63,595 nt of DNA from Fidelibacterota bacterium (GTDB lineage Bacteria; Fidelibacterota; UBA2242). The notes beneath the pieces are model-generated. The model was not told the DNA's origin, made no database searches, and saw nothing but the letters and a program-made list of their open reading frames with translations. Shown piece by piece: positions 4,898 through 22,029 of the stretch (position 1 is its first letter; each line of letters opens with the position of its first letter). The stretch lies in NCBI GenBank assembly GCA_018002295.1, contig JAGNGI010000005.1:1-63595 (forward strand). The letters are read 5' to 3'. A program made the translations under genes and the position numbers.

Positions 4898-5554
4898 CTA
4901 TCGATAAGTTACTTGTAGTTTTTCGGATACATTAAATAAACGATACAATTCTGCAACCTCTGCTTTGCTCAGGGTTCTAATTTCTCCTATTTGTTTAGCC
5001 AGCGCCACAATTCGAAAGACATGCTCGGCGCGTTCGGTCTTGTAATAGGCATCCAATAAATCCTTGCCGACTGTTACTAATCCATGATTTTGGAGTAATA
5101 GCACATCGTTTTTCTGAGCCGCATCGGCTACTATATCTGCCAATTCTTGAGTTGAAGGAGGTTTATACGGGATTAACGGGATTTGCCCGATTGATACGAT
5201 AGTTTCAGGCAAGATTGGATCCGTCAATCCCAGACCAATTACAGCCCAAGCAGTGGCATAAGGCGGATGTGAATGAATGACTGCCTTGACCCAATCACAT
5301 CGTTTATAAATCGCCAGGTGCAAGCGGGATTCTGACGAAGGACGATTTTTATCTAATGGATTTCCAGATAAATCTATTTTAGCTATTTGAGAAGGTTTCA
5401 CCGCACCTTTGGATACATTAGTCGGTGTAATTAAAACCATTTCCGAATTCAAACGCATACTGAGATTGCCGTCATTAGCCGCAACATAACCATTGGCATA
5501 GATTTTCTTGCCGATTTCGCAAATAAGTTTTCTATATTTTCTTTCACCTGTCAT
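4898..5554 (-). CDS. Class II aldolase/adducin family protein (FucA/MtnB-like; substrate not assignable)
   Basis: DGNLSMR, PSSESRLH, IHSHP and LLQNHG metal-binding motifs. Confidence 0.85.
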   Translation of the reverse strand: MTGERKYRKLICEIGKKIYANGYVAANDGNLSMRLNSEMVLITPTNVSKGAVKPSQIAKIDLSGNPLDKNRPSSESRLHLAIYKRCDWVKAVIHSHPPYATAWAVIGLGLTDPILPETIVSIGQIPLIPYKPPSTQELADIVADAAQKNDVLLLQNHGLVTVGKDLLDAYYKTERAEHVFRIVALAKQIGEIRTLSKAEVAELYRLFNVSEKLQVTYR

Positions 5555-6828
5555 TTTTTAGTCCTTATCTGATTAAATCCAGTATATTTCTGTAAAACCT
5601 GCGGAATTATGATTGTGCCTTCTGGCGTTTGGCAAGTTTCGAGTAATGCAATCATAAGTCGGGGAGTGGCTACACCAGAACCATTTAAAGTATGCACGAA
5701 ATTTACCTTATTATCGCTGGTTCGGCGGTAACGGATATTTGCCCGGCGTGCCTGAAAGTCCTCAAAATTACTGACACTTGAGACTTCGAAATATTTACCA
5801 CTTCCCGGTGCCCAAACTTCGATGTCGTAACATTTAGCCGCCGCAAAACTCAAATCAGCCGAACAAAGTTCCACCACTCTATAATGGAGATTCAAAGCCT
5901 GTAAAATATCTTCGGCGTCCCGCAGTATCTGTTCGTGCACTTGGTAGGAGTTCTCAGGCGTGGTGAACCAAACCAACTCCACTTTATTAAATTGATGCAC
6001 GCGTGATAAACCGCGGGTATCTTTGCCATACGAACCGGCTTCCCGTCGAAAACAGGCAGAGTAAGCTGTATATTTAATCGGCAGTTGGTTTTCCGGAAGT
6101 ATTTCATCACGATGAATATTCGTTACCGGTACCTCTGCTGTCGGGATTAGAAAAAGGTCCTCAATTTCAATGTGATACATATCTTCTTCGAGTTTAGGTA
6201 ACTGACCGGTACCGAAGGCTGATTCACGGTTAACCATAAATGGCGGAAAGACTTCCTGATATCCGTGATGATTCCGATGAAAATCCAGCATGTAATTGAC
6301 TAAGGCGCGCTCGAGAGTAGCACCATCTCCGATATACATAGGAAATCCCGAGCCTGAAATTTTGGCAGCTCTTTTCATATCAAGAATTCCCAGTGCTTCT
6401 CCTAAATCTAAATGATCTTTTAAGGGAAAATCAAACTCCGGTTTGTGTCCCCATTCTTTTATAGTAACATTATCAGCGGCTGATTTTCCGATTTTAACAC
6501 TTGTGTGCGGTAGATTAGGTAAAGTAATTAGGATACTATTTATCTTTTCATCAATTTCTTTCAATTTATGGTCAAGGTTACTGATTTGATCGCCTACCGA
6601 GCGCATTTCCAGGATCTTTTCTGCGACTGGTAATCCTTTTTTTTTCAATTGGCCAATCTCGTCACTGACCCGATTGCGGACAGCCTTCAATTCATCAGCT
6701 TGGTTAATGCATTTTCGGCGTTCGCCATCCCATTTTAACAGCTCATCCAATTTATCGCCGGCATTTTTGGCTTCCAATCCTCGCCGAAATTTTTCCGGTT
6801 CGTTTCTAATTTGTTTAATGTCTAACAT
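5551..6828 (-). CDS. serS: Serine--tRNA ligase
   Basis: MLDIKQIR start, coiled-coil arm, LIPTAEVP, FRREAGSYGKDTRGL.RVHQFNKVE, EVSSVSN, HTLNGSG. Confidence 0.97.
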   Translation of the reverse strand: MLDIKQIRNEPEKFRRGLEAKNAGDKLDELLKWDGERRKCINQADELKAVRNRVSDEIGQLKKKGLPVAEKILEMRSVGDQISNLDHKLKEIDEKINSILITLPNLPHTSVKIGKSAADNVTIKEWGHKPEFDFPLKDHLDLGEALGILDMKRAAKISGSGFPMYIGDGATLERALVNYMLDFHRNHHGYQEVFPPFMVNRESAFGTGQLPKLEEDMYHIEIEDLFLIPTAEVPVTNIHRDEILPENQLPIKYTAYSACFRREAGSYGKDTRGLSRVHQFNKVELVWFTTPENSYQVHEQILRDAEDILQALNLHYRVVELCSADLSFAAAKCYDIEVWAPGSGKYFEVSSVSNFEDFQARRANIRYRRTSDNKVNFVHTLNGSGVATPRLMIALLETCQTPEGTIIIPQVLQKYTGFNQIRTKK

Positions 6829-6920: not shown

Positions 6921-9464
6921 TCAGACGTAGCTGGTGCGGTGTTTACGCCGTAGTCCAATTAATAGAGTCTGAATGATAATTTTTAAGTCTAAAATAACTG
7001 ACATATTTTCGATGTAATATAAATCATAGCGCAATTTTTCGCGTACATCATCAATGGTTTCATCGTATTTATATTTAATCTGCGCCCAGCCGGTGATTCC
7101 GGGTTTGATGATTAAGCGACGCGAGTAAAATTGAATGGAACGTTCTAACTCATTAACAAAATAATCCCGCTCGGGACGCGGTCCCACAATGCTCATATCA
7201 CCCATTAGGACATTGAAAAATTGCGGAATCTCATCGAGCCCAGTTTTTCGCAAAAATTTACCGAAACGGGTGACTCGCGGATCATTTTTTTCAGCCCATT
7301 TCGGTCCGGTTTCCTGCTCGGCACCCTGAACCATCGAACGGAATTTAATTACTTCAAATTCGCGACGATTTTTGCCAATTCTTTTTTGTTTATAAAATAC
7401 CGGTCCCGGAGAGTCGAGTTTAATTATCAAACTTATGATTAGCCAGATAGGTAGAAATCCGATTAAAACTACTAACGAAATAATGATATCAATGAGCCGT
7501 TTCAATACCCATTCCCAGGTTTTCATATTAGAGCCGAAAAACTTTACCAATGAGACTCCATAAATGTGACTGGTTCGAAAACCGGTGAGTAGATTGTAAA
7601 AATCAGGCAGTAATTTGATCGAAACGTTGTACCTTGAAAACAGATCAATCATATCAATAACCTGATTCATATTATTGTCATCAAGGGCAATAATGACTTC
7701 TTTAATTTTTCTTTTTTTAATAATCTCGGGAATGTTTTCAAAACTACCAATAATCGGTACCCCTTCAATTATTTTCCCGATATTTCCATTGGCGTGATCA
7801 TCAACCATTCCAACTATGTTAAATTTTAACTCAGGGACAGAATTTATTTTCCGAACTACATTGAGCGCACGACGTGAAGCGCCGATAATTAATGTCGGAC
7901 GTTTTTTAAATTCTAACAAATTGTATTTTTTCAAAATAGTAATTAATACTAAACGACCAACACTAATACCAGTAACCAGAAAAATACCATAAGTGACTAA
8001 TATTCGCCTCGAAGGAAGAAAGGGAATTTTGAATTCAAAACTCAGAAAGAATAATACAATCGTGCCGAAAAATATTATTTTAAAAACAGTAAATATTTCA
8101 TCAACTCGCGAAGTATCCCATTCAATTCGGTAAAGATTATTCAAGCCCAATAACGAAGTCCAATAGATAACTGACCAGGCGATCCATAAAATTAAATTAT
8201 AGGGAGTCAACAATTGCTCCGGTAAAAGATTGGGAACAATCTGCCAATAATAAACCGCTAAAAACGAACCAACGATAAATAAGACATCACTCAAGAAAAA
8301 GATAAAGGATTGAATAAACTGCGACGTATCAAACGGGATAAATCTTGGCTCTGAATGTCCATTGCTAAATCCATTGGTCTTGCTGTTATTATTGGTACCA
8401 TTGGGCACAACGATTAGGTTTTTCTCGATCTCAAAATAACCCAGTCGGCGTATCACTAAACCTACAAAAATTGCACCGGCGAATAAAATTGTCACGATCG
8501 CCCGATTATCAAGGTAAATGAAAGAACAGCCGATAAATCCGGCAATAATACTTAAAAAATACATTACCTTGACCGCATTTTTATGCGAAAATCCAATTGA
8601 CATTAAACGATGATGAATATGTTCCTTATCCGCCATAAATGGGTTCATATGCTTATTGATTCGTCGGAAAAAGGAAATTGTAGTATCCAATATCGGTACA
8701 GCTAAAATCGTAAGCGGAATAATAATATCCAGACAATTAGTGTGACCAATTCGGCCTACTTCTAATGAAATAACTGCCGTTGAAAAACCAATAAAAAGCG
8801 AACCAGTATCACCCATAAAGATTGAAGCCGGATGAGAATTGAATTTTAAAAATCCTAAGTTAGCTGCAATAAATAATAGACAAACTAAGGCTACCAATGT
8901 TCGACCGGAATGTAATGCTACTAATGCAAAAGCCAGAAAAATAATCGTAGAAACTCCAGCCGCTAGTCCATCCAATCCATCCAGCAAATTCATCGCATTG
9001 GTTATAAATACAATCCATAATATCGTAAAGATTATCGAAAACCAACCTAACCCAACCTCACCAATAATCGGAATATATAAAGATTCAAATCTTAAGCCAC
9101 CTAAAACCACGATGATAGCCGCGAGAATTTGGAAATAAAATTTGGTAGAAAAACGTAACTTTTTAATATCGTCGTACAATCCTACCAGGGCGATTAGCAC
9201 ACCGGTTATACCTAGGAAATAATATCGCCGCGGGACCTCTTCAGCGACCATAGGTAATAAATAGATTGATAATACGGTACCAATTATGATTGACAGGAGA
9301 ATTGCCGCACCACCTAAATAAGGCGTAAACACTTTATGAACTTTCCGTTCACTGGGCATATCGCCAATATGATAACGGAGAGCTATCTTGCGTGCTAGAT
9401 AAGTCAATCCTAACGCGCATATATAGGTAGTCAAAAAGACTGCTAATAAAGATGCCAAAGCCAC
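6921..9464 (-). CDS. Fusion of a WecA/MraY-type polytopic phosphoglycosyl transferase (about aa 1-345) and a WcaJ-type large monotopic sugar transferase (about aa 375-847)
   Basis: N-half: [33 protein letters not shown]. Asn/Gly/Ser-rich linker. C-half: TM bundle, Rossmann-like LIIGAS region, [47 protein letters not shown]. One continuous 847-aa ORF, GTG start with GGAGG RBS. Confidence 0.88.
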
Positions 9465-9624
9465 TACATTCCTCCAGCCAAGATTACTAAATGAATATTA
9501 AATTTCTACTCAAAACATAAGATTTACAGTTTTTCTAAGTTGATAAATTTTAGGGTTATTTAAAGAATCGAGGCCGGTACCAAGTTGATTTAGTCTTTTT
9601 CCTCTTCTTTACTCATCGTGATTA

Positions 9625-9666: not shown

Positions 9667-10320
9667 TTATCTAAAAATCATTTCCTCAGTAATAACTACT
9701 TTTTTATTAATAACCGCCAAAATCGTAAGTAATATGATTCTAATATCTAATTTGAGGCTCCAATTATTAGCATAAGCTAATTCTAATCTTTTTTTATGAG
9801 GTAAAATTACTTTCCTGTCATACTCAAAGGGATTATTCACTGTTGCTAATAATTGATCTTCATGATGATAAATTAAAGAACCTGCACCAGTAATACCGGG
9901 CCGCATTGTATAGTATTGAACAATTTGCATTTCAGATAATGTTGTGGCTAATTGTTCGCGAACTAATGGACGCGGTCCTACTAAGCTCATATCACCCAAT
10001 AAAACATTTAATAGCTGTGGCAGTTCATTTATTTTTGTCTTGCGCAAAAACTTGCCAAATTTAAATGGCCGATTGTCATTTGCTGTTGTAATGTAACCCA
10101 TTTTTTCAGAGCCTTTAGGCATCGTTGTGAATTTATAAACATAAAAATCATTTCCATTATAGCCGACTCTTTTTTGAAGATAAAATACATCTTGTTTTTT
10201 AAGTTTCAATCCGATCGTGACAAAAAAAAAGATTGGTGAAGTAATAAATAACCCCAGAATAGCCATAATTTTATCAATGAGATATTTACTAAATAAGGTT
10301 CGATTTTTATTTTCGACCAT
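9667..10320 (-). CDS. Small monotopic sugar transferase (PglC/Bac_transf family) with an Asn-Glu dyad
   Basis: KFTTM, GKFLRKTKINELPQLLNVLLGDMSLVGPRP, RPGITG. The start is placed at ATG 10320, overlapping the legC end, rather than 10347. Confidence 0.88.
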   Translation of the reverse strand: MVENKNRTLFSKYLIDKIMAILGLFITSPIFFFVTIGLKLKKQDVFYLQKRVGYNGNDFYVYKFTTMPKGSEKMGYITTANDNRPFKFGKFLRKTKINELPQLLNVLLGDMSLVGPRPLVREQLATTLSEMQIVQYYTMRPGITGAGSLIYHHEDQLLATVNNPFEYDRKVILPHKKRLELAYANNWSLKLDIRIILLTILAVINKKVVITEEMIFR

Positions 10321-11476
10321 TCTTAAGAGCCTCACAAACTTGATCAATTTGAGTTCTACTGAGATTTACTGAACAAGGAATATTTAAAGTTATATCTAAA
10401 AGTCGCGGTGCTTTCTCTATTCGATATGACTGGCAATTACGGTAAGGTTTTTGTAAATGATTTAAATACCAAATTGGACGAGTTTGAATCTTTTTGTTTG
10501 TGAGAAGTGCCATAAGGCTTTCTCGATCACGCCCATAAATCTTTTTGTCAATCTGTAAACAGTACATCCAATAATTCACCACCGCATAGTCAGGAACAGG
10601 TGCTAAATTTAATCCATCAATTTTATCAATCTGGTTTTTATATATCTGGTAATTTTCTTGTTTGATGTCTATGTATTCTTTGAGTTTTTCAAGCTGGGCT
10701 ACTCCCATTGCGGCTTGGATATTTGTTAAACGGTAATTATACCCAATTTCATTATGGATAAAACGCAATTCATCATCTTTAGCTTGTGTGGTAAGGTAAC
10801 GAGCTCTATTGGCGATTAATTTGTCATTCGTTATTATCATCCCTCCACCACCGGTGGTGATTATTTTATTGCCGTTAAATGAAAAACAGCCGATTGTCCC
10901 AACTGTTCCTGTGAAGCATCCTTTGAGATTTGTATCTGTATAGTAAGTTCCGATAGATTCCGCCGCGTCTTCGATGACAATGATATTCCTTTGATGGCAT
11001 AATTCAAGTAATTCGGCTAGATTGACGGCGTTACCGAAAACATGCACTGGTACTAATGCGGCTATTCGTTTGCCAGTTATTGAGTTATAAGTATAACCAT
11101 TTTTAAACTTCGTCTGTGATTTAATAAATTCGATTGTCTTTTCTACGTCCAGGCAATAATAATCATCGCAATCCATAAATATTGGTTCGGCGCGACAATA
11201 ACGGACAACGTTTATTGAAGCTATAAAAGTTAATGTTGGGACGATAACCTCATCATTCTCAGTTACGCCAGCCAATTTGAGAGCTATTTCAAGCGCTGCA
11301 GTTCCGTTAACACACGCGATAGCATATTTACTTCCACATAATGAGCAAACATTCTCTTCAAATTTATTAACGTATTTACCGACAGAAGATACCCATTCTG
11401 TATCTAAACATTCCTTGATGTATTTCCATTCATTCCCGCGAATGGAAGGTACAGATAAAGGGATAAATTCAGACAT
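10307..11476 (-). CDS. legC: LegC-type PLP-dependent sugar aminotransferase (DegT family)
   Basis: FIPLSVPSIRGNEWKYIKECLDTEWVSSVG, EDAAESIG, FSFNGNKIITTGGGGM (PLP Lys), GYNYRLTNIQAA. Confidence 0.82.
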   Translation of the reverse strand: MSEFIPLSVPSIRGNEWKYIKECLDTEWVSSVGKYVNKFEENVCSLCGSKYAIACVNGTAALEIALKLAGVTENDEVIVPTLTFIASINVVRYCRAEPIFMDCDDYYCLDVEKTIEFIKSQTKFKNGYTYNSITGKRIAALVPVHVFGNAVNLAELLELCHQRNIIVIEDAAESIGTYYTDTNLKGCFTGTVGTIGCFSFNGNKIITTGGGGMIITNDKLIANRARYLTTQAKDDELRFIHNEIGYNYRLTNIQAAMGVAQLEKLKEYIDIKQENYQIYKNQIDKIDGLNLAPVPDYAVVNYWMYCLQIDKKIYGRDRESLMALLTNKKIQTRPIWYLNHLQKPYRNCQSYRIEKAPRLLDITLNIPCSVNLSRTQIDQVCEALKNGRK

Positions 11477-12440
11477 TATAGATTCCAGCCTTATAAAATG
11501 AAAGATTTTCTTTAATCCAATTTATTGTCTCAGTTAATCCTTGAATGAGCTCATATCGAGGACGCCAGGGAGTCTTGGTAGTAATTTTTGTATTATCACA
11601 CCGTAAATGTTCTACTTCGCTATCTTCCGGTCGAATTCGTTGTTCTTCGAGATTTATAGGTTTTGATAAATTCATAATTTCCATAATTGATTTGGCTAAA
11701 TCACCAATACTAATTTCTTGGTTCATACCAATATTGGTTACTTCGCCAAAAAGTTCTTGGCTCTCGAATATTTTAATAAATCCTGCAACAGTATCTTTGA
11801 CATAAGTTAGATCACGTGTAGGTGATAGATTCCCTAATTTCAGAGTCTGACATTCGGATAGGATTTGAGTAACGATGGTTGGAATAACTGCACGTGCAGA
11901 TTGACGGGGGCCGTAAGTATTAAATGGACGAACAATTTTAACCGGTAGGCCAAACGAACGGTAATAGCTAATTGCCAGTTGATCTGCTGCGATTTTTGTT
12001 GCTGAATAAGGTGATTGCCCAACTAATGGGTGCTTTTCGTCAATTGGAATGTATTGGGCAGTGCCATAAGTTTCACTCGTGGAAGTCATTAGAATTTGTT
12101 CAACTCCAGATTCTTTAGTTGATTGCAGAATATTATAGGCACCTTCCACGTTGGTTTTGATATAAGCAAGTGGAGAAATATATGAATAAGGAATCCCAAT
12201 CAGCGCAGCCAAATGAAAAACAACCTTACAACCTTTCACTGCGTTATAAACAGAATCATAATCCCGAATATCACCAGTTATGACCTCAATATCTCTTTTT
12301 ATGGGCAATGTATCTAACCAGCCCCAACGGTTATTAGAATTATAGCGCACAAATGCTCGGACTTCAAACCCCGAAGCAGCTAAATATTCAGTCAGATGCG
12401 AACCAATAAATCCACCTGCTCCTGTTACTAATACTTTCAA
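11469..12440 (-). CDS. legB: LegB-type NAD-dependent nucleotide-sugar 4,6-dehydratase
   Basis: VTGAGGFIGSHL, FVRYNSNNRWGWLD, HLAALIGIPYSY, TSTSETYG, SPYSATK, RPFNTYGPRQSARAVIPT. Confidence 0.82.
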   Translation of the reverse strand: MKVLVTGAGGFIGSHLTEYLAASGFEVRAFVRYNSNNRWGWLDTLPIKRDIEVITGDIRDYDSVYNAVKGCKVVFHLAALIGIPYSYISPLAYIKTNVEGAYNILQSTKESGVEQILMTSTSETYGTAQYIPIDEKHPLVGQSPYSATKIAADQLAISYYRSFGLPVKIVRPFNTYGPRQSARAVIPTIVTQILSECQTLKLGNLSPTRDLTYVKDTVAGFIKIFESQELFGEVTNIGMNQEISIGDLAKSIMEIMNLSKPINLEEQRIRPEDSEVEHLRCDNTKITTKTPWRPRYELIQGLTETINWIKENLSFYKAGIYNV

Positions 12441-12517
12441 TACTACCTCAAATAAATCTTCTTATATTTTTTCCTATGATTAATAACAAAATAAATCTTC
12501 TATTAGTAATCATAAAT

Positions 12518-13681
12518 TTAGGATAATATTTCTTGATAGGAATGAAATAAATTTGCTTTGTTTTTTATTAAAAAATCTTCTATGCGATTGATATAATTCT
12601 GATTTATTTCTGCATGAGTTGGTAGGTTTACGATATGCCTCGCAATTTTTTCTGCTATTGGACAAGCGCCCCATTGGTAATTAAAAATTTCCAAGTTGTC
12701 CAAAATTGGGTGGATAGGCGAAAGAAACCAATCCCCTAGCTCAATCTTCATTTTCTCAGCTTGATGGAAAAAAGCCGGTCGGTCTTTTACTAACAATGGA
12801 AACTTGAGAAAAGTATGAATAGCATATTCCGGTTCAAAAGGTGGCTCAATATTCATACTTTTTAAAATATCTATATAATTCTGAGCAACTTTCCTGCGAT
12901 GTTGAAGTATTGCTGTAAAATTAGACAATTCCCTTTCACCACGTCGGATTTGCGTTTTCGAAATCCCTTTTTCAAATCCATCTGGCATCTGAGGAAAACC
13001 TAATTCTTCTCTTTGTGAAGATCCCAAAATTAAATTATTTTTACTCAGCCAGCGGTAAATTTTAATTGCTGGCCAATAGAGGTTAGTGCTGAGATTATCT
13101 CGAATAAAGAGGAGAACTTTCAAAGTAATTTCGTCTTTGAAGGAAGGTCGTGTATAATTAATTTCCATTTCCCTTAATTTTCTAGCAATTAAAGGATTAC
13201 GGGATACCGCAAAACCACCAATTCCGGTTGAAAAAGGTTTGTTCCATTGAGTACTGAAAAAAGAAACATCAGCAACTGTTCCATTAGGTTTACCCTTATA
13301 ATAACCGCCAAAACCATGGGCACAATCTTCAATAACGGAGAGGTTGTATTTACGAGCAATTTCAAAAATTGCATCAAGGTCAGGGGCCAAACCATAGGTA
13401 TTTTGGGCTAATATGGCTTTAGTTCGAGGCGTTATTTTACTTTCTATGGCGGATACATCAATTGTATATGTCAATGGATTAATTTCTACATAAACAGGTA
13501 TAGCACCTAAATACATTATGGGATTGACCACTACAATGCAAGTATATCCCGGTAGAATAATCTCATCGCCAGACTCAATGCCAATTGCTTTTAGTATCGC
13601 ATATAGAGCCACACGACCTTTCCAGAAAAAGGTAACTTGACTGGGTTCAACACCTAAAAATTCGGCTATAATTTCACGCAT
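12518..13681 (-). CDS. DegT/DnrJ/EryC1/StrS-family aminotransferase
   Basis: KGRVALYAILKA, LPGYTCIVV, IEDCAHG, SFFSTQWNKP (PLP Lys), VNLPTH. Confidence 0.82.
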   Translation of the reverse strand: MREIIAEFLGVEPSQVTFFWKGRVALYAILKAIGIESGDEIILPGYTCIVVVNPIMYLGAIPVYVEINPLTYTIDVSAIESKITPRTKAILAQNTYGLAPDLDAIFEIARKYNLSVIEDCAHGFGGYYKGKPNGTVADVSFFSTQWNKPFSTGIGGFAVSRNPLIARKLREMEINYTRPSFKDEITLKVLLFIRDNLSTNLYWPAIKIYRWLSKNNLILGSSQREELGFPQMPDGFEKGISKTQIRRGERELSNFTAILQHRRKVAQNYIDILKSMNIEPPFEPEYAIHTFLKFPLLVKDRPAFFHQAEKMKIELGDWFLSPIHPILDNLEIFNYQWGACPIAEKIARHIVNLPTHAEINQNYINRIEDFLIKNKANLFHSYQEILS

Positions 13682-13706
13682 TATTTACTTCTAATTCTAT
13701 TCAATT

Positions 13707-14732
13707 TTAAGAACGTGTTAATTGACTAAACTTAGCTATATTCAACTTTTTAAAAACAATAAAATCTAATAATCCACGTAAAAATCCATAACCATAACCT
13801 AAATGAAAAGCTGCTAATACAAATGGTATAATTGGGATATATTTCCAATTCTGTGGCTTTTTACATATGCTTAAAGTTGCAATTAAATTAAATATCAAGT
13901 AAGTGCCAATCATTAAAATAAAAAATAATCTGCTAATTTTAAATTTAATTCCAAGTAATAAACTAATAGTTAAAAATACTAAAAAAGTTCCTGGTATGAT
14001 ATGTCTGATAGAAGCCGGTATTTTATGCTTCTGAATCACTCTTACTTTCCAGTAGCCATATTGCATATATTGTTTAAATAGAGATCTAATAGATGATCTT
14101 GGATAATACCAGGATTTTATACTTGAGGATTGCCAGATTTTGCCACCAGACCGAATAATACGGAGATTTAGTTCATCATCTTGATTACGAACAAGTTCTT
14201 CATCAAATAGTCCAATTTTTTCCAATGTTGACTTTTTCCAACAGCCAAGATAAACCGAATCAATATATCCGGTATATTTATGATTATGTGAACCTGCCCC
14301 TCCTGAAGAAAACTTAGATTGAAATGCTTTGGCAATAGCCTTTTGGACATAGGATTCTCCGGATGCAACCCAAGGCCCTCCCACATTGTCTGCACCAGTT
14401 TGGTTTAAAATTTTAATACACTGGGTTACATAATCCTCGGCGTATTTTGTATGTACATCCATTCTGATTATTATATCACCTGTAGCTGCTTTGATGCCGA
14501 GATTTAATGCTGAAGGTACGATCTTTTTAGGATTGTCTAATAATTTGATGAAATTATATTTATCTATATAATTTTTAATAATAAATCTTGTTCTATCCGT
14601 GCTCATACCATCAATAATTAATACTTCTATTAAATTTTTGGGATAATCCTGATTAATAATTGAATTAAGACAACTAGCTATATTTTTTTCTTCATTTCTA
14701 CAAGGGACTAAAATCGTAACTTTATTACTCAT
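13707..14732 (-). CDS. Glycosyltransferase family 2 with C-terminal TM helices
   Basis: VPCRNEEKNI, DGMSTDRT, RMDVH (DxH), FDEELVRNQDDELN. Confidence 0.88.
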   Translation of the reverse strand: MSNKVTILVPCRNEEKNIASCLNSIINQDYPKNLIEVLIIDGMSTDRTRFIIKNYIDKYNFIKLLDNPKKIVPSALNLGIKAATGDIIIRMDVHTKYAEDYVTQCIKILNQTGADNVGGPWVASGESYVQKAIAKAFQSKFSSGGAGSHNHKYTGYIDSVYLGCWKKSTLEKIGLFDEELVRNQDDELNLRIIRSGGKIWQSSSIKSWYYPRSSIRSLFKQYMQYGYWKVRVIQKHKIPASIRHIIPGTFLVFLTISLLLGIKFKISRLFFILMIGTYLIFNLIATLSICKKPQNWKYIPIIPFVLAAFHLGYGYGFLRGLLDFIVFKKLNIAKFSQLTRS

Positions 14733-14995
14733 GTTTTATTCAATAATATAGAAAATAATTGCCAAAAAGAGTCTATCATAAATATCGAAAACCATCCAAT
14801 GCTAAGGTATTTTTTAATTTAATTTCCTACTTAAGAATACATTCGATTCTTGTAATAATTTCTGATCCCCATTTAAAATAAAGCGCCAAACACAGGTCAG
14901 GAATTAACAATTCCTTGTAAAAATACCAATCAGCGCTATTATTGATATAGAGTTCAATATTGTTTTGCTTTAAAAACTGACTACCAATCATTTGA

Positions 14996-16093
14996 TCACC
15001 CTCTATTTTCTTCAATTATCTGGTATAGGTATTTTTCCATTAATTTTAAATTTTCTTGCCAATCATAATTTTTCGATACAAATTTACGCCCTTCTAGTCC
15101 AATTTTTTTTCTTAATTCTTTATCAATAACGAGATGATACATTTTTTCAGATAAATCTTGTTCATTACCAGGTTTTACCAAATAGCCAGTTTTACCATCG
15201 ATAACAACTTCAGGCAAGCCTCCAATATTGGAGGCAATCACCGGCACTTCACAGGCAGAAGCTTCAATCGCGGCTACTCCAAAACTTTCAGACATGCTGG
15301 GAAAACAAGCAATATCGAACTGATTTAAATAATAAGGCACATCGGTATTTTTCACACGTCCTATTATAGACACCTGTTTATCTAAACCGAGTTGGGTTAC
15401 AAGGGATTGCACCACGTATTTTTGCGGTCCGTCGCCAATAATAACTAATCGCAGACGGTCAGCAATTTCTGTTCGGCCTTCTAACTTTAGTCGTTCAAGT
15501 AATAACTTGAAAGCTTTTATTAGGCACGTTTGACCATACTTCTCATCAATAGTTTTAATAATTCCAATAGTAATATTTTGAGAATCTTGTTTTCTATTTG
15601 GCTTGAATATATCAAGATCGACACCAAATGGAGTAACAAATATTTCGTAAGGTGATTGATACAGCTTTAGTACTTGTTCACGCATGATTTTACTGGTTGA
15701 GGCAATTCTCGTAGCCGCCTGCAAATTTCTCCGCACAATATTATACATTATCCTGTTTTGATATGGTACATCAAAAACATCCGAACCCCAGACGGAAAGC
15801 AAAGTCGGTCGAAAATTTATTAATCTGGATAATGTTCCGTAACCACTGGCATAATGTGTATTAAGTATATCGGGTTGGATTTGGTTTATCAGTTTCCGTG
15901 TCCAAAGCCAATTTAGATAATACCCAGCTGATGGTCGGAAAGGGAGGACAAACAAGCTCACTTTTGGATTGATTTCATCTATTCCGGGTTTATCTGCACT
16001 AAGAAGATAAACTTCATGATCAATTCCACTTAAACCATTAGCCCATTTGACTATATGGATATTCGACGCATTTCCGATTATACAAATTCGCAA
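14996..16093 (-). CDS. Glycosyltransferase family 4 (GT-B)
   Basis: THYASGYG, LSVWGSDVF, ESFGVAAIEASAC (Ex7E), SNIGGLPEVV. Confidence 0.9.
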   Translation of the reverse strand: MRICIIGNASNIHIVKWANGLSGIDHEVYLLSADKPGIDEINPKVSLFVLPFRPSAGYYLNWLWTRKLINQIQPDILNTHYASGYGTLSRLINFRPTLLSVWGSDVFDVPYQNRIMYNIVRRNLQAATRIASTSKIMREQVLKLYQSPYEIFVTPFGVDLDIFKPNRKQDSQNITIGIIKTIDEKYGQTCLIKAFKLLLERLKLEGRTEIADRLRLVIIGDGPQKYVVQSLVTQLGLDKQVSIIGRVKNTDVPYYLNQFDIACFPSMSESFGVAAIEASACEVPVIASNIGGLPEVVIDGKTGYLVKPGNEQDLSEKMYHLVIDKELRKKIGLEGRKFVSKNYDWQENLKLMEKYLYQIIEENRG

Positions 16094-16102
16094 GATCTTA
16101 TC

Positions 16103-17419
16103 CTAAAAGTGCTCTGAAACAAAGTAATTATTAGTATTGTTATTTTGCCAACTTCTATTTTCTAATTTTAAATAATTTAATACCCGGAATATAGTTATCA
16201 TTATTAGATAGATGAAAATGAACTCATATAAAGATAGAAGTGTTAAATACTGAACAAAAAATGTCAGGGTTGCTAAAGTCATACAAAAGATATTTATAAA
16301 GGTCAAATAAATATTAGGTTGCCTTCTGTTTTGAAAAAATACCCAATAATAAATAACTGAAAGTAAGACTGTCATAAACAAGGTAAACATCCAACCTCCA
16401 ATGAGGTAAAACACACCATAAGCAGTTCCAGTATTAGAAAAAGTAATATTAGAAATCGGTAAAAAACCAATGCTAACATCTTGCCCGGGATCAGACCTCA
16501 AAGGATTACCAATGATAACATTTTTTATATTATAAAAAACGCTCAACATCGTCGAATCCGGTTTAATAGCAGGATAATTGAGCCACTCATCTAAATTAAT
16601 TGGAGAAGAAGTGATATAAAGCATAGTATGTTCGAGAAGAAATTTCCAAACTCCTTCTGAAGTAAATGAAAATGTTTTCCAGGCAATTGTCAATAAAACC
16701 CAAAATAAGTTCATAATAAATAAAACTATTATTCCTGTCCATAAAAGAGCTTTCCATTGTTTCGACGGTGGTATTTCATTTATTTTATAAATAAATAACA
16801 TAATTACAACCCATAATAGATGGTATTTAACCTGCATTGCGGCTAGTGCAATAAACAATCCTACTAATGTTAAGAATGACAGTACTTTCCTTTTCGAGAA
16901 CCGGAAAAAGATCCCAAGTAAAATAAAACATACTTTGGCCACCTCGCCCATATGAGCTGCAAATCCATGCGTCATCTTATCTTCAAATCGTGGATCGCCT
17001 AAAAAAGCGAAACCACCGAACTGATTAAATAAACTAATTACTTTTTTTAAAATTACTCCAATCACAATCCATGAGATAATTATTACCAGCCATTCATAAT
17101 CAGAATATTCCATAATTAGGTTATCTAAACGACCACTATTTTGATTTATCGTTTTCTCTGTTTTATAAAAATGAGAAAATAACTGGCCTATAATCCATAA
17201 TATCATTAGGTTGCATAGGACAAAAAGCTGAGCTCGCATGGTAAATGGTTTAAATCCAATATAAATTAAAATATAATTAACTAGTACACTAATTATTGCA
17301 AAAGGCCAGGCAGTTACAATAAAAGGTGTAACAAGAGTATTTAACCGCCTTTTCTCAAAAGTAGTTAGGGCAAAGACTATTGAAAAAAAGGTTAGACTCG
17401 TAATCTGATCTAAGTTCAA
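16103..17419 (-). CDS. wzy: Putative polysaccharide polymerase (Wzy-like)
   Basis: About 10-11 hydrophobic segments with a large loop (NTGTAYG), AT-rich, located between GT genes and next to the flippase. Confidence 0.65.
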   Translation of the reverse strand: MNLDQITSLTFFSIVFALTTFEKRRLNTLVTPFIVTAWPFAIISVLVNYILIYIGFKPFTMRAQLFVLCNLMILWIIGQLFSHFYKTEKTINQNSGRLDNLIMEYSDYEWLVIIISWIVIGVILKKVISLFNQFGGFAFLGDPRFEDKMTHGFAAHMGEVAKVCFILLGIFFRFSKRKVLSFLTLVGLFIALAAMQVKYHLLWVVIMLFIYKINEIPPSKQWKALLWTGIIVLFIMNLFWVLLTIAWKTFSFTSEGVWKFLLEHTMLYITSSPINLDEWLNYPAIKPDSTMLSVFYNIKNVIIGNPLRSDPGQDVSIGFLPISNITFSNTGTAYGVFYLIGGWMFTLFMTVLLSVIYYWVFFQNRRQPNIYLTFINIFCMTLATLTFFVQYLTLLSLYEFIFIYLIMITIFRVLNYLKLENRSWQNNNTNNYFVSEHF

Positions 17420-17422
17420 TTT

Positions 17423-18481
17423 TTATTCCTGATCAATAATAGATTGAACTACATTTTTGTCTACCTTTGTAAGGGGAGCACTGATTTTTCTGGCTGAATA
17501 TATCGTATCCCAGGCTTCCTTAAATGATACTCGATATTGAAGTATTAAAAGAAGGAAAAAATAACTTAACGCAGGTCCAAGCCATAACCGCCATTTTACT
17601 GGCGATAAATATTTTTTCATATTAACTATCCTGTTAACTGCAAAAAGTAATACTTTTTTACTGGCTTTTTGATTTAAATATTCATCCGATGAAATACCGA
17701 TTTTATGATAGACTTTTGTATTGTTAATACAGGCCTTATTTATATTCAATTTTTTAAGCTTCATACTAAACTCAAAATCTTCTTCGCCGTAAAAAAAATC
17801 TTCTGATAAAGCGCCGTACTTATCAATAATTTCACACCTAATACAAAGAGCGCAACCATTGAGAAAAGCGACTTCTCGTACGTTCGAATTACTAAGTTTC
17901 TTATAATATTTTGTTTGTCCCCATGGCCAGATCATTCCACCAGCATTAGCGATCTTATTCGGTTGATAATAAGAGTAGATAGTTGCCTGTGATGCTCCAA
18001 TCGAAAAATCGGATTGCATTATGGAAATAATTTCATTAATTGTATGAGGCTCGATTACCGTATCATTATTTAAAAGAAAAACATATTGACTTTGATATAT
18101 TTTCAAAGCCAAATCTATAGCGATATTGTTAGCAATTGCAAATCCATAGTTCTCATCATTTACTAAAAATAAGACCTTAGGTTTTTTATCTTTTAAAGGT
18201 GTAATTTTCAATTTTCGATTATGTATATCAACAGCTATTAAATCAATCGGTTTTTTTTCAAGGGGGAAAACTAAATCCGGAAAATTAGTGTTGATTACAT
18301 CTTCCAGCCCAATTTTAGCCCATGTTTGAATTTTTGATACTGAGTTATTATCCGAGCCATTATCAACCAGAATAATATTGAAGTTCGGATAATCCGATTT
18401 CAATACCGACTCCAGGCACTCAATCGTATCAGCCCATTTATTCCAGTTCAAGATTATGATAGATACGTGCGGATAACTCAT
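17423..18481 (-). CDS. Glycosyltransferase family 2 (WbbL-like)
   Basis: IILNWNKWADTIECLES, DNGS, NYGFAIANN, LLNNDT, FFYGEEDFEFS. Start ATG at 18481 overlaps the wzx stop (ATGA). Confidence 0.85.
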   Translation of the reverse strand: MSYPHVSIIILNWNKWADTIECLESVLKSDYPNFNIILVDNGSDNNSVSKIQTWAKIGLEDVINTNFPDLVFPLEKKPIDLIAVDIHNRKLKITPLKDKKPKVLFLVNDENYGFAIANNIAIDLALKIYQSQYVFLLNNDTVIEPHTINEIISIMQSDFSIGASQATIYSYYQPNKIANAGGMIWPWGQTKYYKKLSNSNVREVAFLNGCALCIRCEIIDKYGALSEDFFYGEEDFEFSMKLKKLNINKACINNTKVYHKIGISSDEYLNQKASKKVLLFAVNRIVNMKKYLSPVKWRLWLGPALSYFFLLLILQYRVSFKEAWDTIYSARKISAPLTKVDKNVVQSIIDQE

Positions 18482-19785
18482 AATTCTAAGGGATTTGTTG
18501 ACCATTTATATTTATTATGTTGAATATGGTAAACCAAAAGCATAAATAGAATAAATTCGGAAAGCAATAGAGCAGTTGCAGCACCAATTTCGCTGATTAA
18601 ATGACAAAGAATTGCGCAAATTATAGTATTCAATATTCCCACAATCATCACGCTCTTTAAAAATTCTTTCTTCATATCGTAGTTTGTCATAAAAATTATT
18701 CCAATACAATAATTCAAACCCCCGAATAAAATTACAAAAGAGGCGATTCTAATCACTCGTACCATTGCCAGATTAACTGACCCATTTAAAAGATAAGCAA
18801 TTTTCCCTGCAAAGATAAATAGTAATATTGAGATAATACATCCAATAAAACCCATAATCGTAATCATTCTACTGATATATCTTATGGATTTTTCCGGTTC
18901 TTCAATTTTCTTTCGGGAGATAAAAGGATACAAGGTTTGAGTAAGAGGTGATAAGGTACTTTGGATTGCTTTGACTATCTTTTCACCGGCACTGTATATT
19001 CCCACGCTTATATCTGATGAAAAGATTCCCAGAATAATAACATTAGTATTGCGATATAAATTCATAGCAATATTTGAGAGAAAAATGTGCCAACCTTCTT
19101 TTAAATATCTCTTCAAAATATCCTTATTCGGTTTGAGAAAACGGATGATGAATTTTTTCCTTAAAATGATAATGCTAACAATCCCCGCCAGAAAGGTAGT
19201 CGCCGAATTAAATATCGGCACTAAAACAAAATCGTTTTCATTTTTAATAAAAATGATAATTAAGAGTATATATAATAATTTTGATATAGAAATAATTACG
19301 TTGACATATTTGACTTTTTCCACTCCAATGTAAAACCAGGTAAATAAAAATATATTCGCTAAGATATAGCCGTAGGAAAATAGATAAATGGATCTATAAT
19401 CGTGTATTTTAGGAATCAAAAAACATAATATCCCTAATAGTATAAAACAAATACTGAATAGTATAATTTGAATTATTAAAACATTCGATACTATTTCTGA
19501 TTGTTTCCTACTATTATTCTGACTCTGGGCAATCATCTGGATTCCCGTTATCCCAAATCCATACTCTACGACTATTTGAAAATAATAGACGAGAGCCATT
19601 GCAAAGCTGATGATACCAAATTTTGCTACTCCAATATACCTCAAGAGATACGGAACAGTAATTAAAGGTGCTAAATAAATAATAACCTGATATATGCCAA
19701 ATTGAGCAAAATTAGCAAATAAACTTTTACCTTCTTTATTAGAGAAAAATCCCTTTAACTCATTTAGGGTGGGGAATTGGTTCAT
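18478..19785 (-). CDS. wzx: Polysaccharide flippase Wzx
   Basis: About 12 TM; LITVPYLLRYIGVAKFG, IVEYGFGITG, VGIYSAGEKI motifs. Confidence 0.88.
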   Translation of the reverse strand: MNQFPTLNELKGFFSNKEGKSLFANFAQFGIYQVIIYLAPLITVPYLLRYIGVAKFGIISFAMALVYYFQIVVEYGFGITGIQMIAQSQNNSRKQSEIVSNVLIIQIILFSICFILLGILCFLIPKIHDYRSIYLFSYGYILANIFLFTWFYIGVEKVKYVNVIISISKLLYILLIIIFIKNENDFVLVPIFNSATTFLAGIVSIIILRKKFIIRFLKPNKDILKRYLKEGWHIFLSNIAMNLYRNTNVIILGIFSSDISVGIYSAGEKIVKAIQSTLSPLTQTLYPFISRKKIEEPEKSIRYISRMITIMGFIGCIISILLFIFAGKIAYLLNGSVNLAMVRVIRIASFVILFGGLNYCIGIIFMTNYDMKKEFLKSVMIVGILNTIICAILCHLISEIGAATALLLSEFILFMLLVYHIQHNKYKWSTNPLEL

Positions 19786-20752
19786 CAGGCTTGAGTTCTT
19801 TGCGAAAATTATTAATAATTAAAATGAGAGCATTTACACATATTTGTAAAATTAGAAAGAGCCCTCCCAGACTGATCATAGTTAGTAATCTTTTAGGTCT
19901 ACTCTTCAAATAAGGTGCTTGGGCTATATCAAGGACTTTAACTTCTGCCAGGCTTGGGATTGACTTTAATGTATAAATTTCTTTTTGCTGTTTAAGTTCG
20001 ATCCAGATAGTAGAATACAATTCCAGATCCCTTTTTAATGCCAATTCTTTGATCTGGTTAGCCGGCTCAGCAATTGATTTTACCTGCTCTAAAAATGTTT
20101 GTAAATTTTTTTCTGCAATTTTGATACTGTCTTGGGTATTTTTGATGTGATCTTCAATGTATAATAATTGTTGACGATTTTCATGCTGGATTTGGGTTAC
20201 GACAATTTCATTTAATAGTTCTACCATCCTATTGGCTACATTAGCCGCATAAAAAGGATCGGTGAGTGTCACCGATAACTTAGTAACATTACTTTCATTA
20301 TTGATATTTACATAAATAACATCTTTGAGTAATTTTTTCAATGCCTTGTCAATTTTTTCTCTTTCATTTTTGGCTTTGATGTCAAGCATATCAATTAACT
20401 TTTTTCGATAAATTGTACCGCTGGAATCAACTCCTTCAAATTCTTCAAATAGGATTGTATCTAAAACTTTTCTTGAGGTAAGGATTTCTTTATACATCTC
20501 AGGACTCTGGAGTGTACTTTGAGGTAAATTTATTCCAGCTAAATTTGCCAAAGCACCCATCGAGCTGCCTATACCTGATGATAAATCCTGGCTGGGAGGT
20601 AAAATTGACACTGTAGCGGTATATTTTTTCTTCATTCCAAAAAATACGATTACAAAAACTAGGATAGCTCCAAGTAGTAAAATTAATAGGTTTGTGACGC
20701 GATGTTTAAAAATAAAATAGAGAAGCGGATGTTCTTTTTTTATAGGTGCCAC
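19760..20752 (-). CDS. wzz: Chain-length determinant Wzz-like polysaccharide co-polymerase
   Basis: Two terminal TM helices, YTATVSILPP, coiled-coil periplasmic region, proline-rich VLDIAQAPYLKSRPKR before TM2; no kinase domain. Confidence 0.75.
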   Translation of the reverse strand: MAPIKKEHPLLYFIFKHRVTNLLILLLGAILVFVIVFFGMKKKYTATVSILPPSQDLSSGIGSSMGALANLAGINLPQSTLQSPEMYKEILTSRKVLDTILFEEFEGVDSSGTIYRKKLIDMLDIKAKNEREKIDKALKKLLKDVIYVNINNESNVTKLSVTLTDPFYAANVANRMVELLNEIVVTQIQHENRQQLLYIEDHIKNTQDSIKIAEKNLQTFLEQVKSIAEPANQIKELALKRDLELYSTIWIELKQQKEIYTLKSIPSLAEVKVLDIAQAPYLKSRPKRLLTMISLGGLFLILQICVNALILIINNFRKELKPDEPIPHPK

Positions 20753-20790
20753 GTAATTCTCCTGTTATTTATGAAAATTTTAAATTTCAT

Positions 20791-22029
20791 TTACTTCATT
20801 GCGGCAATAAAAGTTAATAAAATAGTTGCAATGGAAGTAAATATTTCCAGAACTGATAAATCTCCGAATATTGTACTCTTAGAACTACGAGGGATAATTA
20901 TAACATCACCTCGTTTAAGAGTTGCAGATTTACCTGGCTCGGTACTTCCATCCAAGTGACGTATGTAAACCTTATCGATATCTCCTTCATAGGTGTTTCC
21001 ACCAGCCATATTAATATAATCCAAATATGAATAGCCCGGATAAAAATAAAAACTACCTGGAGATTGGACGAATCCATTAACTGATATTCCTCTTTCTGAG
21101 AGAATGTCAATTGCATCACCTGGCTTTAATGGAGTGGAGAAGAAATCTCGCGGATATACCGTCATTACTAGCTGGTGATCAGCCTCTTTTCGCGTAATTG
21201 TTACATTTTCCAAGTCAGCGTTTTCAATAAACTGAGCTTGGCGTCGTAGATAATAGCCTAAGGATTCATTTTCTTGGATAATATCATAGCCACTTCCATA
21301 CACTGCGCCTCGAATAACGATAGCTTCTTTATCCGGATCTCCAAATGGGACGAATATTCTATCGCCCTCTAAAAAAGTAGGGTTATGCTTCAGGTCTCCC
21401 TCGAGTTTATAATTAAAGTAATTTATTGTGTCAATTCTGCCATCGTTTCTAGTTATCTGGATATTAAATTCCTTGGCAAATTGGTCAAATCCCTCAGCCA
21501 GCTCAATTATTTCATTTAATCTTGTAACCGCAGTAACATCATAGAACCCTGGTTGAAACACGGCGCCGGCAATTTGAATCTTGAAAGTGCGTAAGTTTAC
21601 CAATGCTACATCGACTTTGGCACTTGGATAGACTTCATTGATTTTCTTTTTACATAGTTCGATGGCATCTTTCAGAATTAAACCATTTACATTAATTTTT
21701 CCAACCGATGGTATTAATAAATCCCCAGTAGGAGTTATAGCTAATTCTATGTTTATATTTTCAGTGATAATTATATCAATCCCAAATATATCACCAGGGC
21801 CTACGATATATTCTTCGGGTGAAACTGCTTTATCAAGAGCAATTAGTTCTTGCATTTTTGAAACTTCTTTTGCTTTTTCTTTTAAAGTAGTTTTTTCTTT
21901 TTCAGTCTCTTGTTCAAACATTTTCCCATAGGATCTATACGATTTTTGAGATTCGGAGGATCTATATTGTTGCCCTAATGAAATATCGAATAAAATAGCC
22001 ACCATTAGAATAACAAATGCTTTTTTCAT
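20791..22029 (-). CDS. SLBB-domain polysaccharide export protein
   Basis: Signal peptide, YIVGPGD, IPSVGKINV.GL, repeated beta-grasp SLBB units (IAGAVFQPG, VNGFVQSPG..AGG). Confidence 0.78.
   Translation of the reverse strand: MKKAFVILMVAILFDISLGQQYRSSESQKSYRSYGKMFEQETEKEKTTLKEKAKEVSKMQELIALDKAVSPEEYIVGPGDIFGIDIIITENINIELAITPTGDLLIPSVGKINVNGLILKDAIELCKKKINEVYPSAKVDVALVNLRTFKIQIAGAVFQPGFYDVTAVTRLNEIIELAEGFDQFAKEFNIQITRNDGRIDTINYFNYKLEGDLKHNPTFLEGDRIFVPFGDPDKEAIVIRGAVYGSGYDIIQENESLGYYLRRQAQFIENADLENVTITRKEADHQLVMTVYPRDFFSTPLKPGDAIDILSERGISVNGFVQSPGSFYFYPGYSYLDYINMAGGNTYEGDIDKVYIRHLDGSTEPGKSATLKRGDVIIIPRSSKSTIFGDLSVLEIFTSIATILLTFIAAMK

Follow-up and report, generated by a model that had tools for sequence, protein, structure and literature searches.

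A single uninterrupted gene on the reverse strand of the window, the whole stretch of 63,595 nucleotides analysed here, encodes a WecA/TagO-like polytopic PGT (polyPGT) and a large monotopic PGT (LgPGT) in one polypeptide, and is a genuine, continuous and vertically conserved polyPGT-LgPGT fusion of the Marinimicrobia. Its sequence makes it rather likely that the product is a bifunctional PGT, in essence a dual initiator acting on undecaprenyl phosphate (Und-P), onto which it would probably load both HexNAc-1-P and hexose-1-P. The two PGT superfamilies are textbook convergent solutions to one reaction and compete for Und-P, a scarce lipid carrier that cells have to apportion among pathways.

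The whole fusion gene occupies positions 6921..9464 (-) as one ORF of 847 aa with a GTG start and a stop codon at 6921-6923, an assignment based on ORF and domain calls and on 16 orthologous ORFs. An earlier sequence-only reading had placed a polytopic and a monotopic PGT in one polypeptide, and Pfam bore this out, with PF00953, PF13727 and PF02397 all matching within the ORF at scores well beyond their cut-offs; every motif listed by that reading for the two halves was also found, and the coordinates were checked by translation. The same reading had given the gene its own promoter and RBS. A Shine-Dalgarno-like GGAGG, recognised from the sequence only, is indeed present 6 nt 5' of the GTG (9471..9475 (-)), but the promoter fared less well: a sigma-70-like hexamer pair, TTGACC-17-TAGATT at 9653-9625 (-), lies in the 202-nt gap upstream of the fusion gene, and is weak evidence, such matches being no commoner in the region than expected by chance (18 vs 15.7 +/- 3.7 in shuffles). 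A private promoter is thus possible.

The polytopic half (aa 1-343; 8436..9464 (-)) is predicted to contain 11 TM helices ahead of the linker, and the AlphaFold2 (AF2) model, hydropathy and charge bias agree on this number. Translation places the polyPGT motifs DD (D98 D99) at 9168-9173 (-), NLLDGLDG (N159-G166) at 8967-8990 (-), FMGDTGS (F216-S222) at 8799-8819 (-) and HIHH (H282-I-H-H285) at 8610-8621 (-). Glycos_transf_4 (PF00953) matched aa 85-235 with 144.3 bits against a cut-off of 27 (E 4e-42), and in Foldseek comparisons this half of the AF2 model gave TM-scores on target of 0.70-0.82 with MraY and 0.63-0.71 with DPAGT1. Its sequence matches in the PDB fell in the MraY and DPAGT1 families too, and it shares about 40% identity with proteins that carry the name UDP-GlcNAc:undecaprenyl-phosphate GlcNAc-1-P transferase. 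The NCBIfam cut-offs were missed both for the MraY model TIGR00445 (82.7 bits < 192.05) and for the WecA model TIGR02380 (151.6 bits < 326.05); because of the latter, this half is classified as WecA/TagO-like only and not as an ortholog of the ECA-type WecA. In E. coli WecA there are 11 TM helices, the C terminus lies in the cytoplasm and one loop bears HIHH, a motif relevant to UDP-GlcNAc. The motifs DD, NxxDGxDG, FMGDxGS and HIHH, the 11 TM helices and the MraY/DPAGT1-like fold are thus common to the N-terminal half and the WecA/TagO/WbpL-type polytopic PGTs; the latter, however, ordinarily stand alone with about 340-380 aa, whereas the polyPGT of the window continues into a complete LgPGT.

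The C-terminal half comprises a four-helix TM bundle (aa 380-513; 7926..8327 (-)) with AF2 helices at 380-412, 421-441, 453-474 and 483-513, a Rossmann-like CoA_binding_3 domain or 'DUF' (PF13727; aa 514-648; 7521..7925 (-)) with alternating strands and helices in the AF2 model, and the monotopic PGT catalytic domain (PF02397; aa 649-847; 6924..7520 (-)). The Pfam matches span aa 444-620 for CoA_binding_3 (76.3 bits, E 4e-21) and aa 655-836 for Bac_transf (235.5 bits, E 4e-70). In the AF2 model the catalytic domain begins with a re-entrant helix-break-helix at aa 649-669/671-684, which carries K655, R656 and D659 (7488-7502 (-)) and the breaking proline P672 (7449-7451 (-)); the catalytic Asp-Glu dyad D744-E745 (7230-7235 (-)) and the GPRPE motif (G761-E765; 7170-7184 (-)) follow by translation. 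The EPS_sugtrans model TIGR03025 passed its cut-off over aa 391-841 (433.9 bits > 295.55), while the WcaJ equivalog TIGR03023 was narrowly missed (399.1 bits < 410.75) and the WbaP equivalog TIGR03022 missed by far (234.7 bits < 403). By sequence the half matched WbaP and PglC in the PDB, with WbaP (8t53) aligned over aa 384-840, and Foldseek matched the fold of this half to WbaP as well as to PglC (8e37/8g1n, TM-score on target 0.81-0.84). The 4-TM bundle, the CoA_binding_3 DUF, the re-entrant helix, the Asp-Glu dyad and GPRP are shared with WbaP (8t53), WcaJ and CpsE; in these enzymes the N terminus is free, whereas that of the window LgPGT is tethered to a polytopic PGT. The DUF of S. enterica WbaP mediates dimerisation through a beta-hairpin swap and binds UMP, UDP and UTP, and UMP inhibits the enzyme (PMC10942596).

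The two halves are joined by a linker rich in Asn, Gly and Ser and predicted to be disordered (aa 344-379; 8328..8435 (-)), with AlphaFold2 pLDDT <50 across aa 344-375. It is bordered by a conserved 15-residue segment and a conserved FIPFDTSxF, shows a dN/dS of 0.14 against the relative L001 and differs in length among orthologs through in-frame indels, as seen in the ortholog alignment. That a low-complexity linker of this kind could hide a sequencing frameshift or a missed stop, or mark an assembly chimera of adjacent genes, the more so as the related sequences are mostly metagenome-assembled, was considered and is refuted. The linker is in frame, as the sequence-only reading had held, and the same unbroken ORF, with both halves, is present in all 16 full-length loci, which come from independently assembled, species-level Marinimicrobia genomes; the linker indels are in frame every time. 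The 90%-identity cluster of the window protein has 48 members on many contigs from NCBI, ENA, Logan and JGI, and distant fusions occur in further phyla.

The AF2 model of the 847-aa monomer (pLDDT 80, pTM 0.71) shows 11 + 4 TM helices and the helix-break-helix; both active sites are predicted to lie on the cytoplasmic face, and the CoA_binding_3 DUF presumably faces the cytoplasm too. All the catalytic motifs of both halves are invariant in the 16 Marinimicrobia orthologs (66-92% identity). Both halves are under strong purifying selection, with dN/dS values against L001 of 0.061 for the polyPGT, 0.069 for the 4TM bundle, 0.026 for the DUF and 0.022 for the monoPGT domain (dS 0.6-0.9), although such selection would be expected for a purely structural domain too.

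The polyPGT-LgPGT architecture is rare, not unique. Among the best 150 of 105,247 matches, so that the counts are lower bounds, at least 17 fusion representatives were found, each standing for a 50%-identity cluster, and at least 14 of them are full-length. The sources are Marinimicrobia, Ignavibacteriota, Caldithrix/Calditrichota, Zixibacteria and metagenomic lineages, with identities between lineages down to about 30%; the phyla concerned are taken by us to belong to the FCB group. The distant fusions P0003-P0007, P0017, P0041, P0045, P0060, P0062, P0079 and P0128 (770-842 aa) have the domain order of the window protein and mostly retain the polyPGT motifs, but unlike the intact window clade they have mostly lost the Asp-Glu dyad (YK, EK, NK, ER or QK instead), and several also lack GPRP. 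Among the matches listed, the dyad is absent from 11/15 fusion representatives vs 5/137 other LgPGT domains (Fisher p = 3e-10, for counts that are not phylogenetically independent). Decay also takes other forms: P0002, a syntenic ortholog (locus L082), has all four polyPGT motifs degenerate, and in P0263, although the gene is complete, the polyPGT, 4TM and DUF are present but the monoPGT catalytic domain is missing. Where both centres are intact, no part of the fusion is better conserved than the monoPGT, with a mean pairwise identity of 0.58 against 0.44 in the polyPGT; where the dyad is lost, the monoPGT value falls to 0.30, below the 0.34 of the polyPGT.

In the three distant fusion loci examined, among them that of the both-intact P0003, a GT2-4TM-DUF protein whose Bac_transf is vestigial adjoins the fusion or lies at most two genes away; in contrast, the 63.6-kb window holds no such neighbour of its fusion and no GT2-LgPGT-like partner of the kind seen in L078, L080 and L081. 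Rough NJ trees of each half split the fusions into two or three groups, with stand-alone proteins lying between them, a pattern compatible with one or with several fusion events. A search for a possible origin from adjacent wecA and LgPGT genes found no polyPGT gene within flanks of up to 10 kb in the closest LgPGT-only loci, L021-L033, which belong to Bacteroidota, Ignavibacteria and Kryptonia; such an origin thus gains no support from them.

In the Imperiali/Allen classification, the Bi-PGT class comprises proteins in which a monoPGT core carries a second catalytic domain on its N- or C-terminal side (PMC11626204, PMC10942596). The window protein, with a polyPGT N-terminal to an LgPGT, belongs here, as do GT2-LgPGT fusions that are also among the matches listed. 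In the usual Bi-PGT, however, the partner modifies sugars or is a GT acting downstream, whereas that of the window protein is a PGT of an unrelated superfamily acting at the same step. Unexpected monoPGT-polyPGT fusions have reportedly been noted already by O'Toole, Imperiali and Allen in their SSN paper (PNAS 2021); a full-text literature search, to which that paper was external, found no paper describing a polyPGT-LgPGT fusion, and we know of no biochemical characterisation of a monoPGT-polyPGT fusion. As the fusion recurs in several related phyla and has reportedly been noted before, the Marinimicrobia protein is a good biochemical target and not a new kind of system.

Motifs and family scores suggest what each half may do. 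The polytopic half, depending on Mg2+, would load undecaprenyl phosphate with a HexNAc-1-phosphate, most likely GlcNAc-1-P, taken from its UDP-sugar; the monotopic half would form a covalent intermediate at Asp744 and pass on a hexose-1-phosphate, most likely Glc-1-P, so that one protein could prime glycans beginning with either sugar class. The monotopic half may prime the exported polysaccharide of the adjoining locus and the polytopic half a HexNAc-started glycan. Both halves would share the LgPGT chassis, and UMP would be a by-product common to the two reactions. As the chassis of WbaP dimerises and senses UMP, a coupled feedback on the use of Und-P is plausible by analogy. Within the Marinimicrobia clade, the proposal of the sequence-only reading that one protein starts two glycan pathways is the most economical one, given the genuine fusion, the retained signatures, the purifying selection and the predicted cytoplasmic topology. 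It does not extend to a general reason for keeping the fusion, since one half is degenerate in most of the distant members. The other role put forward by that reading, arbitration of the shared Und-P pool, is hypothetical.

The same degeneration lends some weight to a different view of the Marinimicrobia protein, in which only one half matters catalytically, while the other has become a pseudo-enzyme and is retained for scaffolding in the membrane, for dimerisation or for regulation. The excess of dyad loss among the fusions, the degenerate P0002 and the truncated P0263 all favour it; nevertheless it appears unlikely here, as the catalytic residues are intact in the window protein and all 16 orthologs, dN/dS is 0.02-0.07 in both halves, and the monoPGT is far better conserved in the both-intact than in the dyad-lost fusions. 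The latter drop implies that functional loss is visible when present, and none is visible in the window clade. As the motifs changed quickly where relatives evidently lost activity, their full retention in the Marinimicrobia fusion argues for activity. Quite improbable is the possibility that both halves are active and independent, the fusion being neutral or a convenience of co-translation or co-localisation without cross-talk. Genes needed jointly often fuse, and the disordered, low-complexity and length-variable linker would suit such an arrangement; the fusion, however, has been kept across distant lineages and outlasts the decay of one catalytic centre, which together suggest that the physical association is itself under selection, and the pTM of 0.71 over 847 aa hints at a defined relative arrangement of the halves in the model.

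An action of the two halves in series, the polytopic one making Und-PP-HexNAc and the monotopic one adding a sugar-1-phosphate to an acceptor other than Und-P, would account for obligatory co-localisation. It is nonetheless very improbable, since monoPGTs are known to use polyprenyl phosphate acceptors only, with no exception to our knowledge, and the re-entrant helix with its conserved K655/R656 and D659 is canonical. More tentative than dual initiation, and of wider reach, is the possibility that the selected part is the LgPGT chassis (the 4-TM bundle and the UMP-binding, dimerising DUF), and not a pair of catalysts; in the phyla that carry it, the chassis would serve as a general platform for the regulation and assembly of membrane glycan enzymes with unrelated folds. 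It is seen attached to polyPGTs of the WecA type, whether their monoPGT is live, dead or absent, and to GT2 enzymes, whose monoPGT is vestigial. If this were true, a single dimeric machine in Marinimicrobia, with both centres live, would gate two Und-P-consuming initiations through UMP, which both release, and any repeat unit encoded by the adjoining swappable cassette could be primed by it.

The fusion gene forms a constant border to a glycan locus of the Wzx/Wzy/Wza type that is itself hypervariable. Its invariant downstream neighbour is serS (5551..6828 (-)), found in this position in 15/16 Marinimicrobia loci and in the P0002 locus L082; the remaining locus, L004, ends too soon. Upstream lies a Wzx/Wzy-type glycan locus (10307..24388 (-)) which encodes a LegC-like aminotransferase, an epimerase, DegT, GT2, GT1, DUF6337 (a candidate polymerase), a further GT2, Wzx, Wzz, a Wza-like protein, an epimerase and Ugd. 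The central part of this locus is replaced in close relatives: the order from the fusion gene through serS is fixed, whereas the upstream GT and polymerase genes are exchanged even in L001, a relative as close as 92% identity. Next to the fusion gene is a small monoPGT-like gene (9667..10347 (-); 226 aa) in which Asn-Glu replaces the Asp-Glu dyad, and which forms part of an optional cassette together with the gene for the LegC-family aminotransferase; the locus thus holds a third PGT-like gene beside the two halves of the fusion, and with it a further candidate for priming the local glycan. A low-GC stretch at 36-40 kb, considered as a second glycan locus, was rejected as such and is a defence island.

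A natural protein with one predicted-active copy of each PGT, tethered to a nucleotide-sensing DUF, offers a ready test system in which control of the polytopic PGT by the DUF, the coupling of the two reactions through UMP or Und-P, and the role of the non-catalytic LgPGT domains can be addressed, with relatives that have one dead centre (P0002, P0005 and others) as built-in controls. The current annotation names one half only: PGAP calls the protein 'exopolysaccharide biosynthesis polyprenyl glycosylphosphotransferase', and the IMG name for the fusion relatives is 'UDP-GlcNAc:undecaprenyl-phosphate GlcNAc-1-phosphate transferase'. Because pipelines annotate a single half in this manner, a glycan-initiating capacity of uncultured SAR406/Marinimicrobia is under-reported.

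The fusion gene (6921..9464, minus strand) is a single open reading frame of 847 aa with a GTG start, preceded 6 nt 5' by GGAGG, in line with the ribosome-binding site noted in the sequence-only reading; the promoter of its own that was also proposed corresponds to a consensus-level match of a kind not commoner in the region than in shuffled sequence. The Pfam scan places Glycos_transf_4 (aa 85-235, E 4e-42), CoA_binding_3 (aa 444-620, E 4e-21; hereafter the DUF) and Bac_transf (aa 655-836, E 4e-70) within one polypeptide. By the NCBIfam models, aa 391-841 constitute a complete large monotopic phosphoglycosyl transferase (LgPGT), which passes TIGR03025 (433.9 bits, cut-off 295.55) and scores slightly below the cut-off of the WcaJ model (399.1 bits, cut-off 410.75), while aa 6-314, within the polytopic PGT (polyPGT) half, are closer to WecA (151.6 bits) than to MraY (82.7 bits) and miss both equivalog cut-offs. 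Every motif listed in the earlier reading was located by translation, namely D98-D99, N159-LLDGLDG-166, F216-MGDTGS-222 and H282-IHH-285 in the polytopic half and D744-E745 and G761-PRPE-765 in the monotopic half, where K655-R656/D659 and P672 were located as well. Each half passes the structural and motif tests of its superfamily; since neither reaches a substrate-specific equivalog model, the two are classified as a 'WecA/TagO-like polyPGT' and an 'LgPGT of the EPS_sugtrans subfamily' rather than as WecA or WcaJ orthologs.

An AlphaFold2 model, for which 17 fusion sequences served as input (mean pLDDT 80, pTM 0.71), comprises 11 transmembrane helices (aa 2-340), a disordered linker (aa 344-375, pLDDT <50), four further transmembrane helices (aa 380-513), a Rossmann-like domain (aa 522-642) and a helix-break-helix (aa 649-669/671-684) followed by the catalytic domain, a topology consistent with the hydropathy and the Lys/Arg bias. 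Because of its eleven helices, the WecA-like half is predicted to end in the cytoplasm, on the side where a large monoPGT starts. This puts the polytopic catalytic loops, the monotopic active site and the DUF together on the cytoplasmic side, which makes the fusion topologically legitimate. Foldseek matched the N-terminal half to MraY (TM-score on target 0.70-0.82) and human DPAGT1 (0.63-0.71), and the C-terminal half to Salmonella enterica WbaP (8t53, E 2e-15) and Campylobacter concisus PglC (TM-score on target 0.81-0.84); a PDB sequence search returned the same families.

A scan limited to one genome per species identified full-length relatives, at 66-92% identity, in 16 Marinimicrobia (Neomarinimicrobiota/Fidelibacterota) MAGs from independent assemblies, which also places the origin of the window in this group. 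The joining of the halves without a frameshift, as read from the sequence alone, holds in all 16 orthologous loci, each with one uninterrupted reading frame; in the ortholog alignment, linker length varies solely through in-frame Asn/Gly indels, which are bounded by two conserved segments, and the 90% cluster of the exact protein has 48 members across NCBI, ENA, Logan and JGI data. Together, these observations rule out an assembly artefact. The catalytic motifs of both halves are invariant across the 16 orthologs. In comparison with the nearest ortholog, at dS 0.6-0.9, the polytopic half has a dN/dS of 0.061, the four-helix bundle one of 0.069, the DUF 0.026, the monotopic catalytic domain 0.022 and the linker 0.14.

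Between about 0.5 and 32 kb of the window every gene lies on the minus strand, with serS directly downstream of the fusion and a Wzx/Wzy-type glycan locus upstream. From its far end towards the fusion, the locus encodes Ugd, an epimerase, a Wza-like exporter, Wzz, Wzx, GT2, DUF6337 (candidate polymerase), GT1, GT2, DegT, an epimerase, a LegC-family aminotransferase and a small monoPGT-like protein. The order fusion-serS-(aldolase-like)-acyltransferase-DUF2851-...-SLT/LysM is conserved up to the end of each contig in 15 of the 16 Marinimicrobia loci, the sequence of the remaining one (L004) stopping before this order could show, whereas the upstream genes vary. The fusion, Wza, Wzz and Wzx of the related locus L001 share 92-93% identity with their counterparts in the window, but the intervening glycosyltransferases and polymerase share only 23-58%; window 13707-18505 (GT2, GT1, the DUF6337 candidate polymerase, GT2) and the aminotransferase/small-PGT cassette are replaced there, the small-PGT/LegC cassette being absent. 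The pattern is one of classic cassette exchange between conserved flanks, and the fusion thus forms a conserved flank to a glycan locus whose cassettes are swapped. In L001, L009, L010, L012 and L014, the recovered stretch shows no small-PGT gene ahead of the fusion.

When 1.84 billion representatives were searched exhaustively with phmmer, 105,247 hits were obtained, and 17 of the best 150 carry both halves; 14 of these are full-length (770-849 aa, 67% to ~30% identical to the query), and Pfam confirmed the architecture in the two most distant fusions scanned. Named sources are Ignavibacteriota (P0003), Caldithrix/Calditrichota (P0005, P0156, P0086) and Zixibacteria (P0060, P0296), and the cluster of P0062 occurs at JGI on contigs of ~3.4 Mb, the size of a whole chromosome. 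Many WecA-like proteins of 480-560 aa (P0166, P0181, P0186, P0188, P0201, P0205, P0227, P0233 and others) bear C-terminal extensions of 130-200 aa unlike the LgPGT half of the window protein, and may have other fusion partners or be truncated.

The monotopic Asp-Glu dyad is intact in only 4 of 15 fusion representatives as against 132 of 137 other LgPGT domains of the same hit list (Fisher p = 3e-10), counts that are phylogenetically non-independent since the losses cluster in two or three clades. The remaining fusions carry YK, EK, NK, ER or QK in its place, and GPRP is missing as well from several of them. The monotopic domain is the best conserved part of the fusions with both centres intact (mean pairwise identity 0.58 versus 0.44 for the polytopic half) and falls below the polytopic half in those that lost the dyad (0.30 versus 0.34). 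The reverse decay is seen in P0002 (L082 58-2523), a syntenic ortholog in the same fusion-serS-acyltransferase slot known from one 5.5-kb metagenomic contig, where DD, NxxDGxDG, FMGDxGS and HIHH are degenerate and the monotopic half is intact. P0263 (L079 1203-3014) is a complete 603-aa gene for a WecA-like polyPGT with the LgPGT four-helix bundle and CoA_binding_3; it has no monotopic catalytic domain, and the next gene starts 160 nt further on. In three non-Marinimicrobia loci, a GT2-4TM-DUF protein adjoins the fusion or lies at most two genes away (L078 4840-6942; L080 10433-12487; L081 6446-8392); no such partner occurs within the 63.6-kb window. Similar ORFs of ~670-710 aa were found in L021, L022, L026, L028 and L033; the family is a recurrent one, encoded in loci of Ignavibacteriota, Caldithrix, Kryptonia and Bacteroidota in the neighbourhood of either a large PGT or a polyPGT-LgPGT fusion. 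Bac_transf is vestigial and dyad-less in L078, L081, L022, L026 and L028, where the last ~85 aa alone match, weakly; it is undetectable in L080, and L021 and L033 have no catalytic-domain match.

For the clade of the window, a dual initiating enzyme is the best-supported reading. The polytopic half, which shares ~40% identity with annotated UDP-GlcNAc:Und-P GlcNAc-1-P transferases and carries the HIHH loop, would make Und-PP-HexNAc, and the WcaJ-like half Und-PP-hexose via a covalent Asp744 intermediate, such an intermediate being the established mechanism of PglC-type enzymes. Given a locus of Wza/Wzz/Wzx type and a match to TIGR03025, the EPS-locus family, the monotopic half probably primes the local exported polysaccharide. 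The polytopic half probably primes another HexNAc-initiated glycan or those cassettes that require HexNAc. The DUF of WbaP mediates dimerisation and binds UMP, UDP and UTP (eLife 2024, PMC10942596); WbaP is inhibited by UMP (IC50 4.1 uM), a control termed 'one-size-fits-all' by its authors, as every PGT releases UMP (PMC10942596). Polytopic PGTs release UMP too, so feedback on both halves through a shared DUF would be possible in principle, and this would also account for the retention of the chassis in relatives after the loss of the monotopic centre.

As a whole, the protein fits the definition of the 'bifunctional monoPGT' class (PMC11626204, PMC10942596), its unusual feature being the partner, a PGT of the other superfamily. 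Public annotation names only one half at a time, and a literature search found no description of a polyPGT-LgPGT fusion. In the abstract of their PNAS paper of 2021, O'Toole, Imperiali and Allen reportedly describe the discovery of unexpected fusions between monoPGTs and polytopic PGTs. No biochemical study of a protein of this kind is known to us. The fusion belongs to a known, rare and uncharacterised kind; the reciprocal catalytic decay across its family and its place as the fixed flank of a variable glycan locus may be new.

The small monoPGT-like gene directly upstream of the fusion (9667-10347, minus strand; 226 aa, Bac_transf E 5e-51) has Asn-Glu in place of the catalytic Asp-Glu dyad, the nucleophile Asp being missing, and retains GPRP. 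As Asn-Glu is common to all eight Marinimicrobia orthologs and to all 120 best homologs in a 5.8-billion-protein database, down to ~42% identity, the gene represents a large conserved 'NE' subfamily and not a decayed copy. A 707-aa ORF between Ugd and tsaD (24549-26672, minus strand) has no Pfam match at E <= 0.001. Probably a defence island, a low-GC stretch (36643-40584, minus strand; GC ~0.33) encodes a ThsB-like TIR-domain protein (167 aa) and an Eco57I-like N6 DNA methylase (669 aa), along with a 335-aa ORF for which Pfam gave no hit.
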